Shown one piece after another: positions 891 through 41,651 of a stretch of 64,000 bases of DNA (position 1 is the first letter of the stretch; the number at the start of each line of letters is the position of its first letter). The translations under genes and the position numbers were made by a program. This DNA comes from an uncultured Alphaproteobacteria bacterium (GTDB lineage: Bacteria > Pseudomonadota > Alphaproteobacteria > Rs-D84): assembly GCA_944390125.1 (NCBI GenBank), contig CALXOX010000001.1, forward strand, positions 206,990 to 270,989, given 5' to 3'. Under the pieces are notes generated by a model. The model saw only the letters and a program-made list of their open reading frames with translations, was not told the origin of the DNA and made no database searches.

Positions 891-2048
891 TCATGAAGGG
901 TCATACATTATCTTTCCCGACCCTGGGAAAGTAAAACATCCATTATCATCGCAAAATTTTGTTCCACTTGGGCCACGGTTCATATAACAATTACTTTTAG
1001 CAACTGCAGCACCTTCAGCACTTGTTGTTCCCATTGGACACTCTTTTTTACCTTGGCCAGGCAAACAATAATATCCAGCAGGACACTTTACAAAGTAAGC
1101 ATATAACTTTATCGGGTTATCAAGTCCATAAGACTCACTTGGTTCAGGAATTATATTTTTTTCTGGATTATCTGGATAAAATTCACCGGAACATCCCGCA
1201 CCACATACCCAATGATCAAAAATCGTATTACCAGAGCCAACAAAACCATTTCCTGGCTTTAATGCTTCGCAACCACCATTACCCATTTCGCATGAGCGTG
1301 TTGTATAAAGGTTTTCCATAGCAGAATCACGATAATACTCAACAGTATACAAAACCTTATTCCAGTGTCCGTATAACGTCGTGTCTTCAGTAAAGGTTTT
1401 ACTAGTAGTTCCTGTTCTTTCCACATAACCTTCCTCATTAAATCGACGGGTTCCACCGGTTTTGGCTGTATAGTAACCAACAAAATCTTGCCACCAGTTA
1501 AAACTTGGTATAACTCCAGGTCCATCTTCATCCCAAGGTCCATTCTTGTTTTTCGAGAAACCAACCCCATACTTTACATATGCCTCTTTGGGACTTTCTG
1601 CAAAATTAGTTAAATTTTTTTCCAAAGTTAAAGTAAAAACTGTAGGCTCACAAATATCTGAATTTGGTTCCGGGTACTCTTCCCCATATCCTTTTACACT
1701 CGTGCTATTAGAGTTATGAAACTCGGGACAATTAGCACAAACTCTACCTTTCCAATACTGATCAGCCTCACATGTAATCGTCCATGGACAAGAGTCTGTT
1801 GTATGACCAGCACTTTCCTCCCATTGCGCGCCATTCGGCTTTGTACAAGATTTACAAGAAACTGAAGTCCCATCATTATAAGTTCCCGACCCGCAAATTT
1901 CACATTTTTTTAAATCCGTTGAATAATAACATCCAGGTCCGCAATTATTATCTTCATCCGGGTTACCACAACTTGTGACTTGTCCGGCAAAAGCCCCACT
2001 AATCCCCAGAGCAACACAATAAAAAATAGAAAAAAATAAAACTCTCAT
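891..2048 (-). CDS. Cys-rich secreted protein with ephrin-receptor-like (GCC2/GCC3 or VSP-type) CxxC repeats and a Flg_new-like repeat
   Basis: Track ORF of 385 aa. Signal peptide MRVLFFSIFYCVALGISGAFA. Motifs KCEICGSGTYNDGTSVSCKSC and CPAGYYCLPGQGKKECPMGTTSAEGAA. FVGYYT..FTEDTTLYGHW resembles the Listeria-Bacteroides repeat. Promoter TTGACA (2101-2106), 16-nt spacer, TAGAAT (2079-2084) on the minus strand. Confidence 0.75.
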   Translation of the reverse strand: MRVLFFSIFYCVALGISGAFAGQVTSCGNPDEDNNCGPGCYYSTDLKKCEICGSGTYNDGTSVSCKSCTKPNGAQWEESAGHTTDSCPWTITCEADQYWKGRVCANCPEFHNSNSTSVKGYGEEYPEPNSDICEPTVFTLTLEKNLTNFAESPKEAYVKYGVGFSKNKNGPWDEDGPGVIPSFNWWQDFVGYYTAKTGGTRRFNEEGYVERTGTTSKTFTEDTTLYGHWNKVLYTVEYYRDSAMENLYTTRSCEMGNGGCEALKPGNGFVGSGNTIFDHWVCGAGCSGEFYPDNPEKNIIPEPSESYGLDNPIKLYAYFVKCPAGYYCLPGQGKKECPMGTTSAEGAAVAKSNCYMNRGPSGTKFCDDNGCFTFPGSGKIMYDPS

Positions 2049-5568: not shown

Positions 5569-6186
5569 TTACTCAGAATAATAGCAATTACCACCTTCTA
5601 AAATATAATCTCCTGTCACATCTTCAAAATACATTCCCCTTAAATCAGATTCTTGAATATAACAGTCTGTTATATCCGCATCTTTATTCGCATATTCGGT
5701 TAAACCGTGTGCCATACCACCTTTATCATCGTATAACCACGGGCATTCTTGACATTCATATATCATGAAGTCCGGTTCAGAGAGTCCATAATAGCCACTG
5801 CTACAAGCACCTTCGGTTTTGTTAAAAACATAGTCGCATCTGTATGTGCTAGAATTTTGCATTGTTATACTTTGTCGAGTTAATACACCGCTGCTGGTGT
5901 TTGAATAAGTCCAATCGCTTGTATAGTCATAGCATCCACAAAATTGACAAGCGGGGGCTCCTAGGTTAGTAATTGGCACCCGGTATGTTAGTGTGTCAGA
6001 AGTTTGAGACACAATGCAATATTCTGTAGTTTGATAATCACACATTGGACGTCCTATCAAGTGCGAGTATCGTAAACCCTCAGCTTTACAATTACAAACA
6101 ACATCAATGTATGCATAAGATGAGGTCGTAATTAAAGTTAAAAAAATTAGACTAATAAAACCAATAATAGTATTGAAATTTTTCAT
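5569..6186 (-). CDS. Small Cys-rich secreted protein (paralog of 29175..29786 and of the C-terminus of 891..2048)
   Basis: Track ORF of 205 aa. Signal peptide MKNFNTIIGFISLIFLTLITTSSYA. C-terminal module CSSGYY..CQECP..GLTEY..DCYIQ..DVTGDYILEGGNCYYSE is shared with 29175..29786. Preceded by structured leader copy 1. Confidence 0.75.
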   Translation of the reverse strand: MKNFNTIIGFISLIFLTLITTSSYAYIDVVCNCKAEGLRYSHLIGRPMCDYQTTEYCIVSQTSDTLTYRVPITNLGAPACQFCGCYDYTSDWTYSNTSSGVLTRQSITMQNSSTYRCDYVFNKTEGACSSGYYGLSEPDFMIYECQECPWLYDDKGGMAHGLTEYANKDADITDCYIQESDLRGMYFEDVTGDYILEGGNCYYSE

Positions 6187-6211: not shown

Positions 6212-6421
6212 TAAACAAAAACCACCAAAATATGGTGGTCAGGAGGTTGATAACAATCTTACGAATTGCGTGACCTATTTTAATATTCAGCCACCCTCCT
6301 GACCCGAAAAAGCCAGGAGTGTATTTATCGTCGTAATAAAAAAAGCGCACCGCGCCCATAGGTATCTATTCCGACGCGTAAGAGAGGTTATCAAGCCCCA
6401 TCGCAGTAACCCACCGCGACA
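6212..6421 (-). promoter_or_regulatory. Structured 5' leader, candidate riboswitch/attenuator, copy 1 of 2
   Basis: Minus-strand RNA from about 6421 to the terminator ACCACCA-UAUUU-UGGUGGU-UUUU (6239-6217). Highly similar to 29808-30022, with helix-preserving differences. Mutually exclusive pairings of GUCAGGAG exist. Confidence 0.6.
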
Positions 6422-6427
6422 GTAATA

Positions 6428-6455
6428 ATTTTACGTAAACTTAAGAAAAAGTAAA
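6428..6455 (-). promoter_or_regulatory. Putative promoter of leader copy 1
   Basis: Minus strand: -35 TTTACT (6450-6455), 16-nt spacer, -10 TAAAAT (6428-6433). It lies directly after the dnaN terminator. Confidence 0.45.
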
Positions 6456-23355: not shown

Positions 23356-23462
23356 CTCTAAATCCCCATTATCTTGCCGTTCATTATAGCATAAAAGTCA
23401 ATAAAAATAAAGAATAAATACTTTAATATAAAAAAGAATCGCCATAAAATATGGCGATTTTT

Positions 23463-24071
23463 TTATTTTTTCCACTTCCATTCTATTTTTGACTCTGTTC
23501 CAGATAACAGACGCCCAATATTTGAACGGTGACGCCACAAACACAATAAAGCAATTGCTAAGAAAGGCCACCCCATTTGAGAACTAATCACGAACCCTAA
23601 TACTGGCATCAAGCAGAACGCAACAACAGCCCCCAAAGAAGAATAACCAGAAGACAAAGCAACTATCAGCCATTCAACGCCACACGTCACAAAGGCCAAA
23701 GGATTCACTGCCAACAAGACACCAAACAAAGAAGAAATACCTTTTCCACCACGAAACTTTAACCAAACAGGATAACAATGTCCAACGATGGCAGCAAAAC
23801 CACACCAAGCACCAAACACCGGCCCAGCAACGGCATTACCAATAAAAACCGCTGCAATTGCTTTTAACATATCCAAAATCCAAGTTAGCGCAGCCATACG
23901 CAAACCGCCGACACGCATGACATTGGTTGCCCCAATATTGCCACTGCCAACCTTGCGTAAATCACCCTTACCCATAGCCTTTGTTAAAATCAGTCCCATT
24001 GGGATAGAGCCCAATAAGTAAGAAACTAAAACTGCGAGCACAAAAATAATGCTAAAACCTGTTGGTATCAT
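23463..24071 (-). CDS. plsY: Glycerol-3-phosphate acyltransferase PlsY
   Basis: Track ORF of 202 aa. Polytopic membrane protein with GSGNIGATNV and FRGGKG motifs. Confidence 0.9.
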   Translation of the reverse strand: MIPTGFSIIFVLAVLVSYLLGSIPMGLILTKAMGKGDLRKVGSGNIGATNVMRVGGLRMAALTWILDMLKAIAAVFIGNAVAGPVFGAWCGFAAIVGHCYPVWLKFRGGKGISSLFGVLLAVNPLAFVTCGVEWLIVALSSGYSSLGAVVAFCLMPVLGFVISSQMGWPFLAIALLCLWRHRSNIGRLLSGTESKIEWKWKK

Positions 24072-24516: not shown

Positions 24517-26145
24517 CTAATTCAGCGGCGCTCCCCAATGTTGCTGTATCGTACGTTCCGCATCCATCGGACTTACCAATACCTGCGGTGTCAAGATTAC
24601 AACCAACACATCACGGGTAGCAGACGTTTCACGCGAGCCAGATAGGGCCATAAAGTCTGGGTCGCCTAAGCCATAACGAGTATCGTTATTAGTCTGCTTT
24701 TCAAAACCAGATACAACCAACATCTGACCAGATTCCATAATAACTTCCTGCATGAAACTACGTTCCTCAACCTCTGGTAACTGTAATGTTACTTCACCGA
24801 TAGTCTGAGTGGACATCTTCAGCAGTTCACGAATTGACATTCTGAACAACAGTAAAATTTTTCCATTTTCCAGAACATTAGGCAACAACTGCATAGAAAA
24901 GCCTGTTTCCAAATCATCTTGATCAACCGTACTTGATTCGACCGTTGTAAAGTTACGAGATTCAAAACGTTTAATATAACCTGTTGTACGTGTATTATTT
25001 ACAGGAGCGACACGATTATTACGCGTGGTTACACCAACGTTAGTAACCAAAGACACCTTGCCCTGCTTTGCCAAAGCCTGAATCAAAGCATCTGTTCCTG
25101 CCAATCCAGACAAAGACCCGTTTTGTATTTGATCTTGGGTATAAGCACCAGCGACCTCCTTTGTTCCTTCCAAATGTGTCGCCCCCGTCAGACCAGACAC
25201 AGCATTCGACAAAACTGCGATATTCATTGAACTGGCTTCTGTACTTGTCAAATTATTCTTAGGGTTAGCAACGATATTCAAACCAGAGGCAGAATTTATC
25301 GCCGCCGCCAAATTCAATCCGAACGCTGAGTCATTAGATATAGATACCTGCAAAACTTTTACATCTATCGTTACCAACTGAGACAAACGTCTATTTTGTT
25401 TATCGATATAATCAGCCACACGATTCAATGTGGATGGAGGTGCAGTAACTGTTACAGTACCCAAACTACGTGATACAGTAAAGCTCGCATTATCGACATC
25501 TCCTATTATAGTATCCAAAGCATTTTCAATCTCGTCCCATTCCTTTAATGTAGACTCTAAAGAAACCGTATTGCCATCATCTGTTTCAACCGCAGTTTGG
25601 TAAGAAACGTCAGTCCCCAGCGCATACAAAGTAAATGTCTTTGTTTCTGTTTCATAGAAAACAATTGCTGATTTATCGTAATACCATAATAAATCCAAAT
25701 CAGTCGCAACCTGTGACAACAATCCAGACAAGCTACCCGTATAAGCAATATTTATCGTTTTCTTTAATTTCTCTGAACTTACCTGATTATCAATTTTTAC
25801 AGGGATGCCAGTAATGGAAGTGATATTATTTGCCAAAACATTCAGTGTAACTGGTTCATCCAGCAAAATTGTAATACCTGTGCTGGTTTCAAATTGAGAC
25901 GGCAAATTATTTCTGTGTTCTAACAACGTAGAGGAAGCACCTAACCAAACACCTTCAGACATAGAAACAGTATCACCACTAGCAACCTTGGCCGGCGGGT
26001 TTTTAGACATTTCAAACGCATCATATGCATTTATAAAATCCTGGTCAACAGACGCCGCAACTTTGGCAGATTCCTCTTTAGCGCAACCAGAAACGAACGC
26101 GCCCAGCAGAGTGCACATTATTAAAAATCTTGTCGGTTTGGTCAT
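24517..26145 (-). CDS. Secretin-family outer-membrane lipoprotein (PilN-like, type IVb pilus class)
   Basis: Track ORF of 542 aa. Lipobox AFVSGC. C-terminal secretin domain GQMLVVSGFEKQ..YGLGDPDFMALSG..RDVLVVILTPQVL aligns with the canonical GQTLVLGGL..PLLGDIPLLG..ELLIFITP pattern. Confidence 0.75.
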   Translation of the reverse strand: MTKPTRFLIMCTLLGAFVSGCAKEESAKVAASVDQDFINAYDAFEMSKNPPAKVASGDTVSMSEGVWLGASSTLLEHRNNLPSQFETSTGITILLDEPVTLNVLANNITSITGIPVKIDNQVSSEKLKKTINIAYTGSLSGLLSQVATDLDLLWYYDKSAIVFYETETKTFTLYALGTDVSYQTAVETDDGNTVSLESTLKEWDEIENALDTIIGDVDNASFTVSRSLGTVTVTAPPSTLNRVADYIDKQNRRLSQLVTIDVKVLQVSISNDSAFGLNLAAAINSASGLNIVANPKNNLTSTEASSMNIAVLSNAVSGLTGATHLEGTKEVAGAYTQDQIQNGSLSGLAGTDALIQALAKQGKVSLVTNVGVTTRNNRVAPVNNTRTTGYIKRFESRNFTTVESSTVDQDDLETGFSMQLLPNVLENGKILLLFRMSIRELLKMSTQTIGEVTLQLPEVEERSFMQEVIMESGQMLVVSGFEKQTNNDTRYGLGDPDFMALSGSRETSATRDVLVVILTPQVLVSPMDAERTIQQHWGAPLN

Positions 26146-26189
26146 TTTTATTTTCTCCTACAGCAAACAACTATACGACGTCTTAAAAC

Positions 26190-27101
26190 TTATTCCGAAG
26201 TAGAAATCACCAAAACGCGATTTCCCTTATAAAACTTTGCATACGGCACAGGTGTTGCGCGTGCAAAATTACGTACCAAAGCAGATGCAACATCAACGAA
26301 GCGTCCCTTAAATACAGCACTTGCTTCAATAGGATATTCACGAGATGTTGCCCAAACTAAATCCCAACCTTCTTTATTGCACCAGTCTTGCAAAACCTCA
26401 CGCAATGTCTGACCATTTGCAACGACCCAAGAACGAACTTGATCTGTAACCGTTGCCGGGGCTTCGGCATCCGCAGAAATATCAACTGCAATTTCTGCAT
26501 CTAAGTTCTCAGTTGCCTCATTAGCCGCGGCAATTTCTGCTTCACTCATACCGTATTTCGCCATAAAGGCTTCATATCCGTCACGATATTGATTACAATC
26601 TTGACGACTACTACGAGAAACAGCCAAAACACTGCCACCATCATCTTCTAACATTTCACGGCTCAGCAAAGGCATTTCGGCACCACTTTTACATGGGTCA
26701 TCAAAACCAGCTGGCACCTGCGTACCATGCAACATATTTGCACCACCCGACCAACCAGCAAAACCATCGCTATCTGTCGTGCCTAAATTAAAATTATTTT
26801 CAACAACCAAATCAGCGCCAATTTTAGAAACTATACGAATATTGTCTTTTTGTTTATCGCCTGAACACGCACCGTCATCACACGCAACTGTAACGTCTGC
26901 ATCCGAACCAGCAATCGGCCACACAGGTACCTCCTGTTGAGCAGCCGCAGTATCTTCGTACTGAACCAATTGAGTTTCAGAAACTACTGGTTCTTGAGAA
27001 TAATAAACTTCAGACGTAACGACCTGTGGTAAATACTCATCTGCGAAACAGTACCCTGCCGCAGTTGCAAACATCGCCACGATTAGAATCTTGCGAAACA
27101 T
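26190..27101 (-). CDS. TcpQ/PilL-like pilus biogenesis protein
   Basis: Track ORF of 303 aa with a signal peptide. C-terminal ~90 aa WVVANGQTLREVLQDWCNKEGWDLVW..YPIEASAVFKGRFVDVASALV matches the TcpQ-domain pattern as I remember it. It sits immediately upstream of the secretin. Confidence 0.55.
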   Translation of the reverse strand: MFRKILIVAMFATAAGYCFADEYLPQVVTSEVYYSQEPVVSETQLVQYEDTAAAQQEVPVWPIAGSDADVTVACDDGACSGDKQKDNIRIVSKIGADLVVENNFNLGTTDSDGFAGWSGGANMLHGTQVPAGFDDPCKSGAEMPLLSREMLEDDGGSVLAVSRSSRQDCNQYRDGYEAFMAKYGMSEAEIAAANEATENLDAEIAVDISADAEAPATVTDQVRSWVVANGQTLREVLQDWCNKEGWDLVWATSREYPIEASAVFKGRFVDVASALVRNFARATPVPYAKFYKGNRVLVISTSE

Positions 27102-27839: not shown

Positions 27840-29171
27840 ATGCCAAAACTATCTGAAAATCTTGTCCAAGAAATTTCAAACACTCGCGGTGAGCCTATCT
27901 GGTTATTAGAATGGCGATTGAATGCGTTACGTTCTTGGCAGAAAATGTCAGAGCCACACTGGGCTGAAATAGATTACAAAGCAATAGATTATGACTCCCT
28001 GAATTATTATAACGAAGCGAAAAAGATAGATAATTCCGAACTTCGTGAAACTTATGAAAAAATGGGTTTGCCCGAAAGCGAACAACGTGCCCTGCTTGGT
28101 ATGGCAACAGATACAGTAATAGACAGCAAGTCCGTTCATACTTCTTATACAGAAGAATTAAATAAACGCGGCATAATATTTTTACCTTTTTCAGAGGCGG
28201 TAAAACAGTATCCAGAATTAGTAAAGCAATATCTTGGTACAGTAGTTCCTGCTACAGACAATTTTTTTGCCGCATTAAATGCCGCGGTATTTTCTGATGG
28301 AACATTTGTATATATTCCGAAGAACACAAAATGTCCAATAGATTTAGCAAGCTATTTCAGAATAGAAACGGCAAAAATAGGACAGTTTGAAAGGACACTA
28401 ATTATTGCAGATGAAGGTTCTGAGCTCAGTTATATGGAAGGTTGCAGCGCACCACGCCGCCCTAATCACCAATTACATAGCGGTGTTGTTGAAATAGTAG
28501 TAAAAGATAATGCAACCGTAAAATATGCAACTGTACAAAATTGGTATGCTGGTAAATTTAACTCTGAACAAAAGAAAAACGAAGGCGGCATATTAAACTT
28601 CGTAACCAAGCGCGGAAAATGTGAAAATAATGCCAGACTAGATTGGACACAGGTAGAGATAGGTTCTGCCATGACCTGGAAGTATCCATCAACAATTTTG
28701 GCCGGAAACAATGCACATAGCGATTTTTACTCACTATCAATAACCCGTGGTGCCCAGCAAGCGGACACAGGAACAAAAATGATTCATATTGGAGATAACA
28801 CTGTATCCAATATAACGTCATATGGTGTTGCATTAGATGCCTCGCGACAGACATTTAGAAGTTTAGTAAGTTTTAGCGGTCACAATGGTAAAAACGCATC
28901 GAAATGCGACACAAGATTGATTGGTTCAGAAGCAATTGCCAACACTCTGCCAACTATAATACACACGAACGGAGATAATTTGCAAAGCCACGAGGCTTCA
29001 ACAGGAGCCATAGACGCCAATCAACTGCAATTTTTAATGGAATCTGGAATCGAAGAAGATGAAGCAACCGCATTGATAATAGGCGCAGTCGCCTCACCTG
29101 TCATATCAAGATTACCCATGGAATTTCTTGTAGAATCAAAACAACTAATTCAAATGGCATTATCAAAATAA
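27840..29171 (+). CDS. sufB: Fe-S cluster assembly protein SufB
   Basis: Track ORF of 443 aa. Contains FERTLIIADEGSELSYMEGCSAP and the beta-helix core typical of SufB. Confidence 0.9.
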   Translation: MPKLSENLVQEISNTRGEPIWLLEWRLNALRSWQKMSEPHWAEIDYKAIDYDSLNYYNEAKKIDNSELRETYEKMGLPESEQRALLGMATDTVIDSKSVHTSYTEELNKRGIIFLPFSEAVKQYPELVKQYLGTVVPATDNFFAALNAAVFSDGTFVYIPKNTKCPIDLASYFRIETAKIGQFERTLIIADEGSELSYMEGCSAPRRPNHQLHSGVVEIVVKDNATVKYATVQNWYAGKFNSEQKKNEGGILNFVTKRGKCENNARLDWTQVEIGSAMTWKYPSTILAGNNAHSDFYSLSITRGAQQADTGTKMIHIGDNTVSNITSYGVALDASRQTFRSLVSFSGHNGKNASKCDTRLIGSEAIANTLPTIIHTNGDNLQSHEASTGAIDANQLQFLMESGIEEDEATALIIGAVASPVISRLPMEFLVESKQLIQMALSK

Positions 29172-29174
29172 AAA

Positions 29175-29786
29175 TCACTCTGTCCAATAACAGCGAGCAG
29201 ACCAGCTATTTCCTTCTATAATATATTCTCCAGTTTCATCACTATACACACTATATGTTCTGTCAAAAGGTTGCAAATAACAATCCTCCAACGTCATATT
29301 CGCCATGCTTGCTGTTGTACCATATGACATTCCTTCCTCAGAATCCATACCGCATTCTACACACGGAACCCCAGGACATCTTACACAGTCTTTGGCATCA
29401 GTAGAATAATAGTAACCATACTGACAATATGCTTCAATAGAAATCACCGTCCACGTATCACACAAGCACCCACTGCCCTGTTCGGTTATTGTGGCACCAT
29501 TTTCAGTTCTTGTGCGAGTTCCACACGAAGTATAACAAAAGCCAGAGGAAGTACATTTGACACCATTACTTGAAGAACCAACCGAAACATTTGTAACGCC
29601 TTTCGTACACCCAGCATAAGTAGATTTACAATTTCCAGCTTGCGTACTGCCGCCACCAAGGCACCAAAGGCATTGATAAGATGTGCTCCTTGCGCAGTAA
29701 CCATCTATGGTATAGGACGCAGCGAAAGAATTTGTGAATACGAACATCCAAAAACAAATTACACCAACAAAAATTTTTTTCATCAT
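29175..29786 (-). CDS. Small Cys-rich secreted protein (paralog of 5569..6186)
   Basis: Track ORF 29175..29828. I prefer the ATG at 29786 or 29783 (MMKKIFVGVICFWMFVFTNSFA), which follows a CAGGAG RBS. C-terminal module CQYGYY..CVRCP..YGTT..DCYLQ..DETGEYIIEG..CYWTE. Preceded by leader copy 2. Confidence 0.75.
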   Translation of the reverse strand: MMKKIFVGVICFWMFVFTNSFAASYTIDGYCARSTSYQCLWCLGGGSTQAGNCKSTYAGCTKGVTNVSVGSSSNGVKCTSSGFCYTSCGTRTRTENGATITEQGSGCLCDTWTVISIEAYCQYGYYYSTDAKDCVRCPGVPCVECGMDSEEGMSYGTTASMANMTLEDCYLQPFDRTYSVYSDETGEYIIEGNSWSARCYWTE

Positions 29787-29807
29787 CAAACTCCTGTTTT
29801 TTTCAGA

Positions 29808-30022
29808 ACGAAAAAACCACCAAAGCATTTGGTGGTCAGGAGGTTAACGACAATTACAGGAATTGTGCTGCTTATTCAATATATTCGCAAGCCCTCCTGA
29901 CACATATCAGGAGTTTATTTTTCGTCGTAATACTAAAAACGGCGCAAAGGTCCGCGCCATAAGTACATATTCCGACGCCTGTAAAGAGGTCGTTACACCC
30001 CATCAGCAGAACACCCGCCGAC
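29808..30022 (-). promoter_or_regulatory. Structured 5' leader, candidate riboswitch/attenuator, copy 2 of 2
   Basis: Minus-strand RNA from about 30022 to the terminator ACCACCAAA-UGC-UUUGGUGGU-UUUUU (29836-29811). It shares long identical blocks with 6212-6421. Confidence 0.6.
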
Positions 30023-30028
30023 AGAGAC

Positions 30029-30057
30029 ATTATAGGTTTCCGCACGTTGCAACGCAA
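30029..30057 (-). promoter_or_regulatory. Putative promoter of leader copy 2
   Basis: Minus strand: -35 TTGCGT (30052-30057), 17-nt spacer, -10 TATAAT (30029-30034). Confidence 0.55.
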
Positions 30058-30074
30058 GCAATTTATGTTATAAT
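30047..30074 (+). promoter_or_regulatory. Putative sufC promoter (divergent, overlapping the leader promoter)
   Basis: Plus strand: -35 TTGCAA (30047-30052), 16-nt spacer, -10 TATAAT (30069-30074). AAGGTG RBS precedes the ATG at 30101. Confidence 0.5.
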
Positions 30075-30100
30075 TCTAGCTATAAATAAGGTGTTGATAG

Positions 30101-30778
30101 ATGTTAGAAATAAAAAATTTATCTGTATCTCTTGGTGATAAAAGTTTATTGACCGACATAAACATGCATATAAAAAGGGGTGCCCGTCACTTATTGGCTG
30201 GGCATAATGGTTCTGGAAAATCTACACTTGTCGGTACAATTATTGGTAACCCAGCATATACCATAACTAGTGGTAAGATAATATTTGACGACAAAGATAT
30301 AACAAACGAAAATACCACAACACGTGCATTATTAGGGATTTTTCTTGGTGCACAAAACGTACCTGAAATACCTGGTCTTACCGTATTGAGTTTTTTAAAA
30401 CACTCTATTGCCGCACATAAACATTTTGAAACAGGAAAAGAACTATCTATGGGCGAATTTCTGTCAAACCTAGAAACAGCTCGCACTAAATTAGACATTC
30501 CAAAAGAATGGTTAAACCGCAGTATAAACGTCGGTTTTTCTGGTGGCGAACGCAAACGCCTGATGCTGCTACGTCTGATTTTAACCAATCCGAAATTCGC
30601 CATTCTTGACGAGCCTGATTCTGGTGCAGACGCAACTGTACAACAACAGATTGTTGATACCATACACGAAATGAAAGATACAACATTCCTGTTTATAAGC
30701 CACCAACAGCATTTCACAGAATTGGTAAAACCTACAGATATAACGACTTTGTCGGATGGTAAAGTTATGATAAAATAG
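30101..30778 (+). CDS. sufC: Fe-S cluster assembly ATPase SufC
   Basis: Track ORF of 225 aa. Walker A GHNGSGKST, ABC signature FSGGERKR, Walker B AILDEPDSG. Confidence 0.95.
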   Translation: MLEIKNLSVSLGDKSLLTDINMHIKRGARHLLAGHNGSGKSTLVGTIIGNPAYTITSGKIIFDDKDITNENTTTRALLGIFLGAQNVPEIPGLTVLSFLKHSIAAHKHFETGKELSMGEFLSNLETARTKLDIPKEWLNRSINVGFSGGERKRLMLLRLILTNPKFAILDEPDSGADATVQQQIVDTIHEMKDTTFLFISHQQHFTELVKPTDITTLSDGKVMIK

Positions 30779-35127: not shown

Positions 35128-35203
35128 TGGTGGCTAGAAGTGGAATCGAACCACTGACACAGGGATTTTCAGTCCCTTGCTCTACCAACTGAGCTATCTA
35201 GCC
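35128..35203 (-). tRNA. tRNA-Phe (GAA)
   Basis: Minus-strand sequence GGCUAGAUAGCUCAGUUGGUAGAGCAAGGGACUGAAAAUCCCUGUGUCAGUGGUUCGAUUCCACUUCUAGCCACCA. It folds as a cloverleaf with anticodon loop CUGAAAA, T-loop GGUUCGAUUCC and an encoded CCA. Confidence 0.9.
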
Positions 35204-40495: not shown

Positions 40496-40755
40496 AAAGG
40501 TCTCCTTTTTTCTTATGGTTACAATACATATTGTATAATAAAAAAACACAATTTTCGTCAGGTTTGAATCCCTAGGAATACCAGGAAATCATGCACATAC
40601 AGCGATTTCATATAACCAAAAAATCATTTAATAAATCTGCTTTTTATCAGCACAAACCCACCTAGTTCGATAGAGTTTTATTTTCGTCATCATACCTTGT
40701 TAAACTTCTAAAAAAAAACCGCCGAACGAATCGGCGGTTTAAACAACAATCATGA

Positions 40756-41370
40756 TTAGAACATAAATCTAACACCAATATCACCACCAAAATTATGTAA
40801 GCCAGAATTGATATCTACATAATTATAGCGAGCAGCAATATCAACAGCGAAACGTTCCATATCGAATGTTACGCCCATCGTACCCATTGCAGAAAAGCGA
40901 GTTTTGCTTTCGCTGTGATGACCGACATCTGGAACTTCACGTTTAACATCCGTAAACGCGACACCGGCACCCAAACCAACGAATGGACGAACTACGCGAT
41001 AACCACCGAATTCCCAATAAGAGTTCCACAACAGGGTCTGCATTTTTGTTTCTACTTTTACATCGCCGATATCGCCGAAATTAGCAGTATCTTTTGCTTT
41101 GCTGTAGATAGACCATTCAATTTCTGAACGCATCGTATCACAAACTTCCAAACCCATTGCTGCTCTGCCCTGGAAAATCATATCAGACAAAGTTTCTTTT
41201 TTATCGTTATAGCTATAATTTAAATTAGAATAACTTGCACCGCCACGCATACCGATGTAAGGATCCAAACCAAACATCTGCCAGCTACTGCCTTGAGACT
41301 GATAACCTGTTCCAGCAAATGCAGGGCAAGCAATCAGCACAGCCAGTGTTGATATAACTATTTTTTTCAT
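40756..41370 (-). CDS. Outer membrane beta-barrel protein (OmpA-like/Omp25 porin family)
   Basis: Track ORF of 204 aa. Signal peptide with AFA cleavage site, alternating beta-strand pattern, and terminal GVRFMF. Confidence 0.8.
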   Translation of the reverse strand: MKKIVISTLAVLIACPAFAGTGYQSQGSSWQMFGLDPYIGMRGGASYSNLNYSYNDKKETLSDMIFQGRAAMGLEVCDTMRSEIEWSIYSKAKDTANFGDIGDVKVETKMQTLLWNSYWEFGGYRVVRPFVGLGAGVAFTDVKREVPDVGHHSESKTRFSAMGTMGVTFDMERFAVDIAARYNYVDINSGLHNFGGDIGVRFMF

Positions 41371-41575: not shown

Positions 41576-41651
41576 GGGTGCGTAGCTCAGTTGGTAGAGC
41601 AACTGACTCTTAATCAGTGGGTCCAGGGTTCGAGTCCCTGCGCGCCCACCA
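41576..41651 (+). tRNA. tRNA-Lys (CTT)
   Basis: GGGUGCGUAGCUCAGUUGGUAGAGCAACUGACUCUUAAUCAGUGGGUCCAGGGUUCGAGUCCCUGCGCGCCCACCA. It folds as a cloverleaf with anticodon loop CUCUUAA and an encoded CCA. Confidence 0.9.

Follow-up and report, generated by a model that had tools for sequence, protein, structure and literature searches.

Transcriptional riboswitches of the pbuE/ydhL adenine type are a familiar example of ON switches in which a multi-helix junction with tertiary contacts serves as the sensor and the 3' strand of the closing helix doubles as the 5' foot of a terminator, the two structures being mutually exclusive. The cyclic diguanosine monophosphate (c-di-GMP) riboswitches GEMM-I and GEMM-II occur in many copies per genome, and the genes that they precede are not metabolic but encode secreted or surface proteins of unknown function. 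sRNA-Xcc1 (RF02221 in Rfam) is an 88-nucleotide (nt) RNA of Xanthomonas campestris (PMC2996969) and is described as a trans-acting small RNA (sRNA) under HrpG/HrpX control (PMC2996969; Chen 2011 cited there). Here, we describe an element found in 64,000 nt of DNA from an uncultured alphaproteobacterium of the Rs-D84 lineage (contig CALXOX010000001.1, positions 206,990 to 270,989 of the forward strand), a stretch referred to below as the window and numbered from its first base. Positions 29787–30074 of the window probably hold a promoter and a ~215-nt 5' leader that acts in cis as a transcription-attenuation switch for the mRNA of a secreted, cysteine-rich (Cys-rich) protein, and this leader is one of a large family of riboswitch-like attenuator leaders that had not been catalogued before. 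The two leaders of the window, their elements and the genes behind them lie on the minus strand.

By mechanism, the closest known kind of RNA is the transcriptional riboswitch whose closing helix shares bases with its terminator. The leader differs from pbuE/ydhL in an overlap of 2–3 nt, in a third strand that competes for the 5' strand of the closing helix and in two pseudoknots in which a hairpin loop pairs with a tail; there is no sequence or Rfam similarity between the two. The likeness to the c-di-GMP riboswitches is an analogy of regulons and carries no evidence on the ligand, and none of the Rfam second-messenger riboswitch classes matches the leader even at E values up to 10, the limit of our sub-threshold search of Rfam version 15. 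At gathering score no Rfam family matches the leader in the window or in the 19 loci searched. The EGFOA motif (RF02955), considered as a candidate gut motif, proved unrelated, being found in large intergenic regions of Veillonella and Paenibacillus and giving no match.

Members of the family were collected by scanning one genome per species with the pattern GTCAGGAGG-N30-60-CCTCCTGACCACC, which gave more than 118 stretches; once nine G+C-rich palindromes belonging to other phyla had been dropped, 110 distinct examples were left, the two window copies included, and these can be aligned from the conserved promoter through to the terminator. A covariance model, R1 (218 positions, 55 pairs), finds 130 matches across 100 sources, among them ~25 that lack the exact search words and so sample the family free of the bias of that search.

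Three strands and an overlapping terminator

The leader of interest, copy 2 of two in the window, is preceded by a −35 box TTGCGT (30052–30057), identical in the orthologous locus L071, and a −10 box TATAAT (30029–30034), with a 17-nt spacer between them. Because the −35 box matches TTGACA at only three of six positions, this promoter is not listed by the scan tool, and it is backed instead by conservation across the family: exactly TATAAT is the best-scoring TANNNT upstream of the first hairpin, P1, in 66 of the 110 members, TTG stands at −35 in 79, and the spacer measures 17 nt in 90. Transcription would start near 30022, the first base of P1 and ~7 nt past TATAAT.

Near the 3' end of the leader, segment B (GUCAGGAGG, 29893–29901) can pair with either of two other segments: segment A (CUCCUGA, 29907–29913), a proposed anti-antiterminator strand that faces UCAGGAG at 29894–29900, or segment C (CCUCCUGAC, 29835–29843), the 3' strand of a proposed antiterminator helix. 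As A and C cannot hold B at once, A:B and B:C are alternative helices. The leader ends in an intrinsic terminator, ACCACCAAA-UGC-UUUGGUGGU (hairpin 29836–29816), in which a G+C-containing stem is followed directly by a U run reaching 29811; the match of the scan tool spans 29837–29815, and a run of at least four U follows the hairpin in 105 of the 110 members. The final A and C of segment C (29836–29835) are at the same time the first two bases of the terminator stem, and the G that precedes B in 97 of the 110 members lengthens B:C to 10 base pairs (bp) and the overlap to 3 nt.

Both pairings are supported by covariation. A pairs with B in 99% of alignment cells and B with C in 98.4%, the latter with two-sided changes at six of eight positions, even though B:C is not part of the model. 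The 113 aligned sequences contain 10 distinct A/B/C triplets, in nine of which A:B keeps 6–7 of its seven pairs and B:C all nine; the tenth comes from a poorly aligned class-3 sequence, with B:C at only six of nine. In class 1 the three strands read CUCCUGA, GUCAGGAGG and CCUCCUGAC, in class 2 CUCCAAC, GGUUGGAG and CUCCAACC, and in class 3 CCCCGA, GUCGGGGGG and CCCCCCGAC with related forms. Classes 2 and 3 keep both pairings, and they retain the overlap between C and the terminator despite their different sequences.

The preliminary description of this DNA had set out the promoter, hairpin, 9-bp helix, terminator, ribosome-binding site and ATG, all of which stand in the minus-strand sequence where it placed them, the terminator being reported independently by the scan tool. 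It had also described the competition between CUCCUGA/UCAGGAG and the 9-bp helix, which the three-way co-change of A, B and C bears out, and the amendment suggested by the sequence is that the 3' strand of the long helix would take the basal 2–3 pairs of the terminator.

Median energies are −13.3 kcal/mol for A:B, −19.1 for B:C and −10.0 for the full terminator, which drops to −2.4 once the three basal pairs are removed. Added up, A:B plus terminator and B:C plus the remaining stump come within ~2 kcal/mol of each other, so that the two states are nearly iso-energetic. With B:C formed, the residual terminator stem sits 3 nt away from the U run, and in intrinsic termination a hairpin set back by 3 nt from the U run abolishes release. 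Segment A is carried on a variable, A-rich linker, and its loop is variable in length (median 8 nt). In silico, these mutually exclusive pairings have the design of a terminator, an antiterminator and an anti-antiterminator.

Fold and covariation of the leader

Pairs were counted on an alignment derived from the model (A4), which leans towards that model, and the count was repeated on a structure-blind MAFFT alignment (A3). On A4, standard pairs form in 94.6% of cells, two-sided changes are seen at 54 of 59 pairs and the covariation score is 0.467 against 0.159 in shuffles, none of 500 reaching it, while only 39–52% of cells pair in a control with slid partners. On A3, pairing is seen in 92.4% of cells and double changes at 40 pairs, and none of 500 shuffles is as good. 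S1, B:C and H7 lie outside the model and yet covary, and in a mutual-information scan the helices described below come out as the top pairs, those of P3 among them.

The leader begins with P1 (30002–30022), an 8-bp hairpin of GUCGGCGG and CUGCUGAU with the loop GUGUU, in which all eight pairs change on both sides and 98.4% of cells pair. The hairpin S1 (29986–30001) follows, formed by GGGG at 29998–30001 and CCUC at 29986–29989; its second pair is GC in 75 sequences, GU in 31, AU in 15 and unpaired in 2, and GGAG/CUCC variants exist. The loop of S1 holds S2a (UAACGA, 29990–29995), which pairs with S2b (UCGUUA, 29845–29850) to make a pseudoknot with S1, and this helix, S2, pairs in 99.7% of cells (99.1% on the structure-blind alignment) with up to four pair types per position. 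A second long-range helix, P3, joins P3a (UUACAGG, 29978–29984) to P3b (CCUGUAA, 29854–29860), all seven of its pairs changing on both sides. P3b is the loop of the hairpin H7 (29850–29866), whose stem of ACAAU (29862–29866) and AUUGU (29850–29854) is found in at least seven complementary versions (CAAU/AUUG, CUAU/AUAG, CUAC/GUAG, GCAU/AUGC, AAUC/GAUU, GUCAU/AUGAU and GAUA/UAUC). A lone pair, U32:A163 (29997 with 29866), covaries as well, being UA in 100 sequences, CG in 13 and UG in 3–4, and mutual information also links position 33 with 185.

Between these parts stands the P4/P4b/P5 arm (29923–29977), composed of CGUCG...CGACG, AAUA...UAUU and GGCGC...GCGCC, with covariation in all three helices; the arm is optional, being absent from short variants. 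The U5 that follows P5 (29935–29939) is nearly invariant. The G+C-rich P5 hairpin and U5 together (29935–29960) are called terminator-like by the scan tool, and an early terminator or a programmed pause is conceivable here; the 5' strand of P4, GCGUC, is complementary to the 5' strand of P5, GGCGC, and a helix of these two strands would be an antiterminator for P5 and U5. The last hairpin of this part, P6 (UUGC/GCAG, 29868–29890), covaries at four of four pairs around a nearly invariant loop, GAAUAUAUUGAAUAA. A loop–loop contact between P1 and the CACAAUUC junction was considered and rejected, mutual information giving it no support.

The 5' and 3' parts are each built of a short hairpin and a tail, and each loop pairs with the tail of the other, through S2 and P3. 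In S1 and H7, one or two linker bases precede the pairing segment on its 5' side while its 3' side has no linker, an asymmetry that is the loop–helix stacking geometry of kissing complexes, and through U32:A163 the S1/S2 linker is connected with the end of H7. From this linker geometry and the covariation of U32:A163 we infer that S1, S2, H7 and P3 coexist, alternation between them being the other possibility. The helices of the preliminary description are all present, but its fold was incomplete: S2, P3, the S1 pseudoknot, H7 and the lone tertiary pair have been added by covariation. For RNA biology, the family offers a large and clean alignment of a new complex fold with two pseudoknots.

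That the window holds a second leader of the same architecture, as the preliminary description had it, is seen from R1, whose strong matches in the window number exactly two and score 223 and 177 bits. Copy 1 (6216–6427, 177.5 bits) has a −10 box TAAAAT (6428–6433), P1 at 6400–6420, segments A, B and C at 6313–6319, 6295–6304 and 6237–6246, and its terminator at 6217–6239. The two leaders are 73% identical by BLAST, and the proteins encoded behind them, which the same description had called paralogous and Cys-rich, are ~30% identical over half the length; the gene of copy 1 (5569–6186) encodes a secreted Cys-rich protein of 205 amino acids (aa). A chance origin can be dismissed from the folding z-scores against shuffles (−5.8 and −6.5 for the two leaders) and from the gapped helix pattern, which occurs twice in the window against 0.00 expected. 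Weaker R1 matches at 23433–23601 and 40713–40816 are ordinary gene-end terminators and not further copies.

Were these sequences simply repeated DNA, such as the end of a mobile element, a promoter cassette or a recent duplication, with no functional RNA, the many copies per genome and the insertion of the unit between sufB and sufC would be readily understood. The stems, however, hold hundreds of compensatory double changes while the loops vary in length and sequence, the element always has the same orientation to the downstream gene, at the orthologous locus the neighbouring housekeeping genes are less conserved than the leader, and the plasmid and phage collections contain no match to it, all of which makes this explanation highly improbable. 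The preliminary description had likewise read the persistence of stems between differing loops as structural selection and not recent duplication, with which 12 predicted pairs kept by compensatory two-sided changes between copies 1 and 2, and covariation over 130 relatives, agree; the covariation and Rfam comparisons it proposed have given the 54 of 59 pairs with two-sided changes described above and no family at gathering score. Beyond the two copies that it described, the element is widespread in one bacterial order and is not a mere pair of paralogues.

Nor is it credible, save at very long odds, that a short open reading frame (ORF) beginning at the AUG of GAUGGGG controls the terminator as a leader peptide. 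While that AUG is present in 92 of the 110 members, it is missing from the other 18, no Shine–Dalgarno (SD) sequence precedes it, and its bases are accounted for by the pairing of P1 and S1. The frames of 11 and 43 codons reported earlier for copies 1 and 2 were reproduced, and across the family the length of the frame is not conserved, with values between 7 and more than 57 codons. We rejected the leader peptide on the frame length, the 18 members lacking the AUG and the missing SD.

The proposed switch and its alternatives

In the mechanism we propose, transcription would begin at the foot of P1, and the 5' two thirds of the leader would fold as a sensor domain, in which the S1/S2 and H7/P3 pairs form a clasp tied by U32:A163, the optional P4/P5 arm and the conserved-loop hairpin P6 completing it. 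Pairing of B with A would leave C free and allow the full terminator to form, so that the transcript would end at ~29811 and the gene be off. Pairing of B with C over 9–10 bp would deprive the terminator of its 2–3 basal pairs and leave a weak hairpin set back from the U run, which polymerase would read through, turning the gene on. The sensor domain presumably binds a small molecule or some other factor that tips the balance between A:B and B:C. Our guess is that a stabilised, docked fold favours B:C, making this an ON switch, because B:C belongs to a conserved three-way junction while A hangs on a variable linker.

What is expected of riboswitches is found here in several respects: the 5' untranslated region is conserved and structured, with covarying helices and invariant junction bases; it is recurrently linked to a coherent set of genes, those for secreted Cys-rich products; and, in silico, its terminator and antiterminator pairings are mutually exclusive, with A, B and C changing together. 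Directly supported are the promoter consensus, the helices with their covariation, the fact that A:B excludes B:C, and the bases that C shares with the terminator. For RNA biology, this is an unusually explicit three-strand switch and an orphan riboswitch candidate open to testing.

Several points weigh against this interpretation. The start site, termination and read-through are predictions made from sequence. Nested folding of the full leader prefers A:B plus terminator by ~13 kcal/mol over a forced B:C, in a nearest-neighbour calculation that cannot credit the pseudoknots to either state; C overlaps the terminator by merely 2–3 nt; the covariation of A, B and C comes mostly from ~20 variant sequences in three classes and so represents few independent events; H7 and P3 could either coexist or alternate; and the downstream genes offer no metabolic clue to a ligand or factor.

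This last point, that no ligand-related genes lie downstream, would also suit a cis-acting leader that has no dedicated effector, be it a constitutive attenuator, a thermometer, a device responding to polymerase speed or Mg2+, or a mask of the SD formed by the CUCCUG of A or C. The SD reads CAGGAG in 59 of 99 class-1 genes, complementary to A and C, and RNAalifold does pair C with it. When A, B and C become CUCCAAC or CCCCGA forms, however, the SD stays as it is, and masking by C or A was set aside since its class-1 complementarity comes without covariation. A thermometer or simple attenuator would also need far less than a ~130-nt sensor that combines two pseudoknots with a tertiary pair and invariant junction bases, and we regard a leader of this kind as rather unlikely.

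For the remaining alternative, a free-standing sRNA gene, sRNA-Xcc1 is the natural comparison, being the best and only meaningful Rfam family below threshold. Copy 2 does not match it at E values up to 10, while copy 1 (34.3 bits), L047 (43.0) and L050 (35.9) score below its gathering score of 53; these three members span all three classes, and the match covers the 3' domain (B, P6, H7, the junction, C and ACC). Like the leader, sRNA-Xcc1 has a 9–10-bp closing stem corresponding to B:C, two hairpins corresponding to P6 and H7, a single-stranded junction and ACC followed by a U run, and each has a gene immediately behind it on the same strand (bioRxiv 10.1101/2025.06.18.660453); in Xanthomonas integron cassettes, sRNA-Xcc1 precedes symE and is oriented so as to escape the cassette promoter (bioRxiv 10.1101/2025.06.18.660453). 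Unlike the leader, sRNA-Xcc1 starts at the closing stem and is without the 127-nt 5' domain (P1, S1, P3a, P4/P5 and A) and the separate terminator hairpin, and the hosts and downstream genes differ. As judged from sequence, the leader would not form an independent ~88-nt transcript starting at the closing stem: its promoter and B are ~127 nt apart, and the 5' domain between them covaries with the 3' domain. Nor does it share an integron, transposon or plasmid context, both window copies being chromosomal and without plasmid or phage match, although attC sites were not searched for. Since the score falls short, the start lies 127 nt further upstream and the 5' and 3' domains covary, we keep the leader out of that family, of which it is not a member; sRNA-Xcc1 is its closest known relative or analogue, and might itself be reinterpreted as a leader-type element upstream of symE.

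An sRNA gene of this kind would release a terminated 215-nt transcript that acts in trans, the downstream gene being expressed incidentally. In its favour, a promoter and a strong terminator belong to the element itself, the terminated form is the thermodynamically preferred one, the 3' domain resembles an RNA detected at 88 nt (PMC2996969), and the many copies in each genome would make terminated leaders abundant. Against this, 110 of 130 copies have an SD and an ORF behind the terminator, in the same orientation and with the start codon mostly within 20–60 nt, a gap that leaves no room for a second promoter, so that the downstream genes are transcribed only through the element; and an A/B/C arrangement overlapping the terminator would have no purpose in a plain sRNA. 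We consider an sRNA gene unlikely, while noting that a role in trans and a switch in cis are compatible with one another.

The attenuation switch can be extended to a bolder proposal, which we offer tentatively and think more doubtful than the switch itself: that the leader represents a new class of orphan riboswitch, in which a 'loop-to-tail clasp' senses a small-molecule or second-messenger signal and jointly switches on the whole fast-evolving repertoire of secreted Cys-rich proteins in an uncultured lineage of gut symbionts with reduced genomes. sRNA-Xcc1 would then be a truncated relative of the same device and not an ordinary trans-acting sRNA.

Regulated genes, family members and genomic setting

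The gene behind copy 2 (29175–29786) encodes a secreted Cys-rich protein of 203–204 aa with a signal peptide and 18 Cys. Its SD, CAGGAG (29791–29796), is complementary to the CUCCUG of A and C; the start ATG is at 29786, and a second ATG at 29783 has the more usual SD spacing of 7 nt. Across the family, nearly all downstream products have a signal peptide and are Cys-rich (median 182 aa, 8.2% Cys), with 79 of 110 falling in one superfamily and 14 in a second. The Cys-rich proteins of the window have no Pfam match, only four homologues of the regulated protein are found among 5.8 billion sequences, and its AlphaFold model is poor, with a predicted local distance difference test (pLDDT) score of 54.6. 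A 385-aa secreted Cys-rich protein encoded elsewhere in the window (891–2048, minus strand) has a weak, below-cut-off match to TNF-receptor-like repeats (PF23091); no leader of this family stands in front of its gene.

The closest relative of the locus is L071, in which the unit of leader and gene likewise lies between sufC and sufB. Identity between the two is 91.7% for the leader and 86.5% for the promoter region, compared with 74.6% for sufC, 78.1% for sufB and 56% for the regulated coding sequence; by these figures no sequence at the locus is more constrained than the leader and none less so than its gene. At the protein level, the products of 29175–29786 and of L071 2083–2685 are 34% identical while their neighbours are ~79% identical, and the cysteines and a C-terminal C..GYY...C..CP...DCY...DETG motif are kept. 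The regulated protein would seem, on this evidence, to undergo rapid and possibly diversifying evolution on a disulfide scaffold. A genome of less than 1 Mb spends a highly constrained 215-nt leader on each of a dozen or more genes. With sufB and sufC less conserved than this leader, and with the proteins encoded behind it down to ~34% identity, central and coordinated control of a secreted or surface repertoire is indicated, and that repertoire is probably the interface with a host or partner.

The sources of the family are nearly all gut metagenome-assembled genomes (MAGs), labelled Candidatus Enterousia or 'uncultured Alphaproteobacteria/Rickettsiales', from humans, chickens, sheep, goats, deer, horses and rabbits. 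At least 12 loci occur in a single MAG, and one circular MAG is 958,618 bp long. Enterousia, with genomes of ~0.75–1.0 Mb and a strongly reduced metabolism, is placed in Rs-D84, an uncultured order of Alphaproteobacteria from human and farm-animal guts whose lifestyle is unknown (PMC12306168). Among the papers found in literature searches on Enterousia and Rs-D84, none has a title or abstract on an RNA motif in this lineage. Typical leaders with Cys-rich genes are also present on contigs titled Bacteroides fragilis (L046, L048, L065 and L066) and Muribaculaceae (L077 and L092), which are most likely mis-binned or mislabelled contigs of the Enterousia type.

Short variants, mostly without the P4/P5 arm and with the class-2 forms of A, B and C, are found at L051 73–222, L061 2162–2316, L074 1715–1912, L075 6301–6454 and L081 5103–5276, and short class-2 leaders often precede genes for small XRE-like helix–turn–helix proteins instead of secreted proteins. 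A longer, divergent subfamily (L050 1088–1318, L064 7696–7917, L075 2474–2710, L097 2780–3024 and L103 7620–7868) has G-rich B strands, GUCGGGGGG, and an enlarged P6, and retains P1, S1/S2, P3, H7 and the terminator overlap; its B strand and the bases that follow are, by eye, the closest to the sRNA-Xcc1 consensus. The G+C-rich, perfect palindromes with the same search words (L005, L013, L105, L117 and others) were rejected as members because they match on both strands and differ in composition. Those in Rhodopila and other unrelated MAGs (L005, L013 and L105; also L117, L038, L041 and L049) carry GGTCAGGAGG...CCTCCTGACCACC, matching on both strands is seen in the palindromes of L013 and L105, and none reaches an Rfam gathering score; they may be hairpins like repetitive extragenic palindromes (REP) or distant relatives of the closing helix.

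Both window copies sit among chromosomal housekeeping genes, dnaN for one and sufB/sufC for the other, the identities of sufC and sufB being confirmed by Pfam. The leader and its Cys-rich gene, on the opposite strand, split sufB from sufC at 27840–30778, as they do at L071 1092–4016, and since a related species has the same arrangement the insertion is old. On the plus strand, a divergent sufC promoter (30047–30074) comprises TTGCAA (30047–30052), a 16-nt spacer and TATAAT (30069–30074); it had been noticed as overlapping the −35 box of the leader, and the scan tool, scoring it 10/12 with a TG extending the −10 box, supports this, base 30052 being common to the −35 hexamers of the two back-to-back promoters. 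Both sufC hexamers are kept in L071.

Further along the window, a secretin gene (PF00263) adjoins a TcpQ-like gene (PF10671) at 24517–27101 on the minus strand, a pairing that suggests a type IV pilus or related secretion apparatus near the leader locus. Two tRNA genes, at 35131–35203 on the minus strand and at 41576–41648 on the plus strand, are the only Rfam matches in the window at gathering score.

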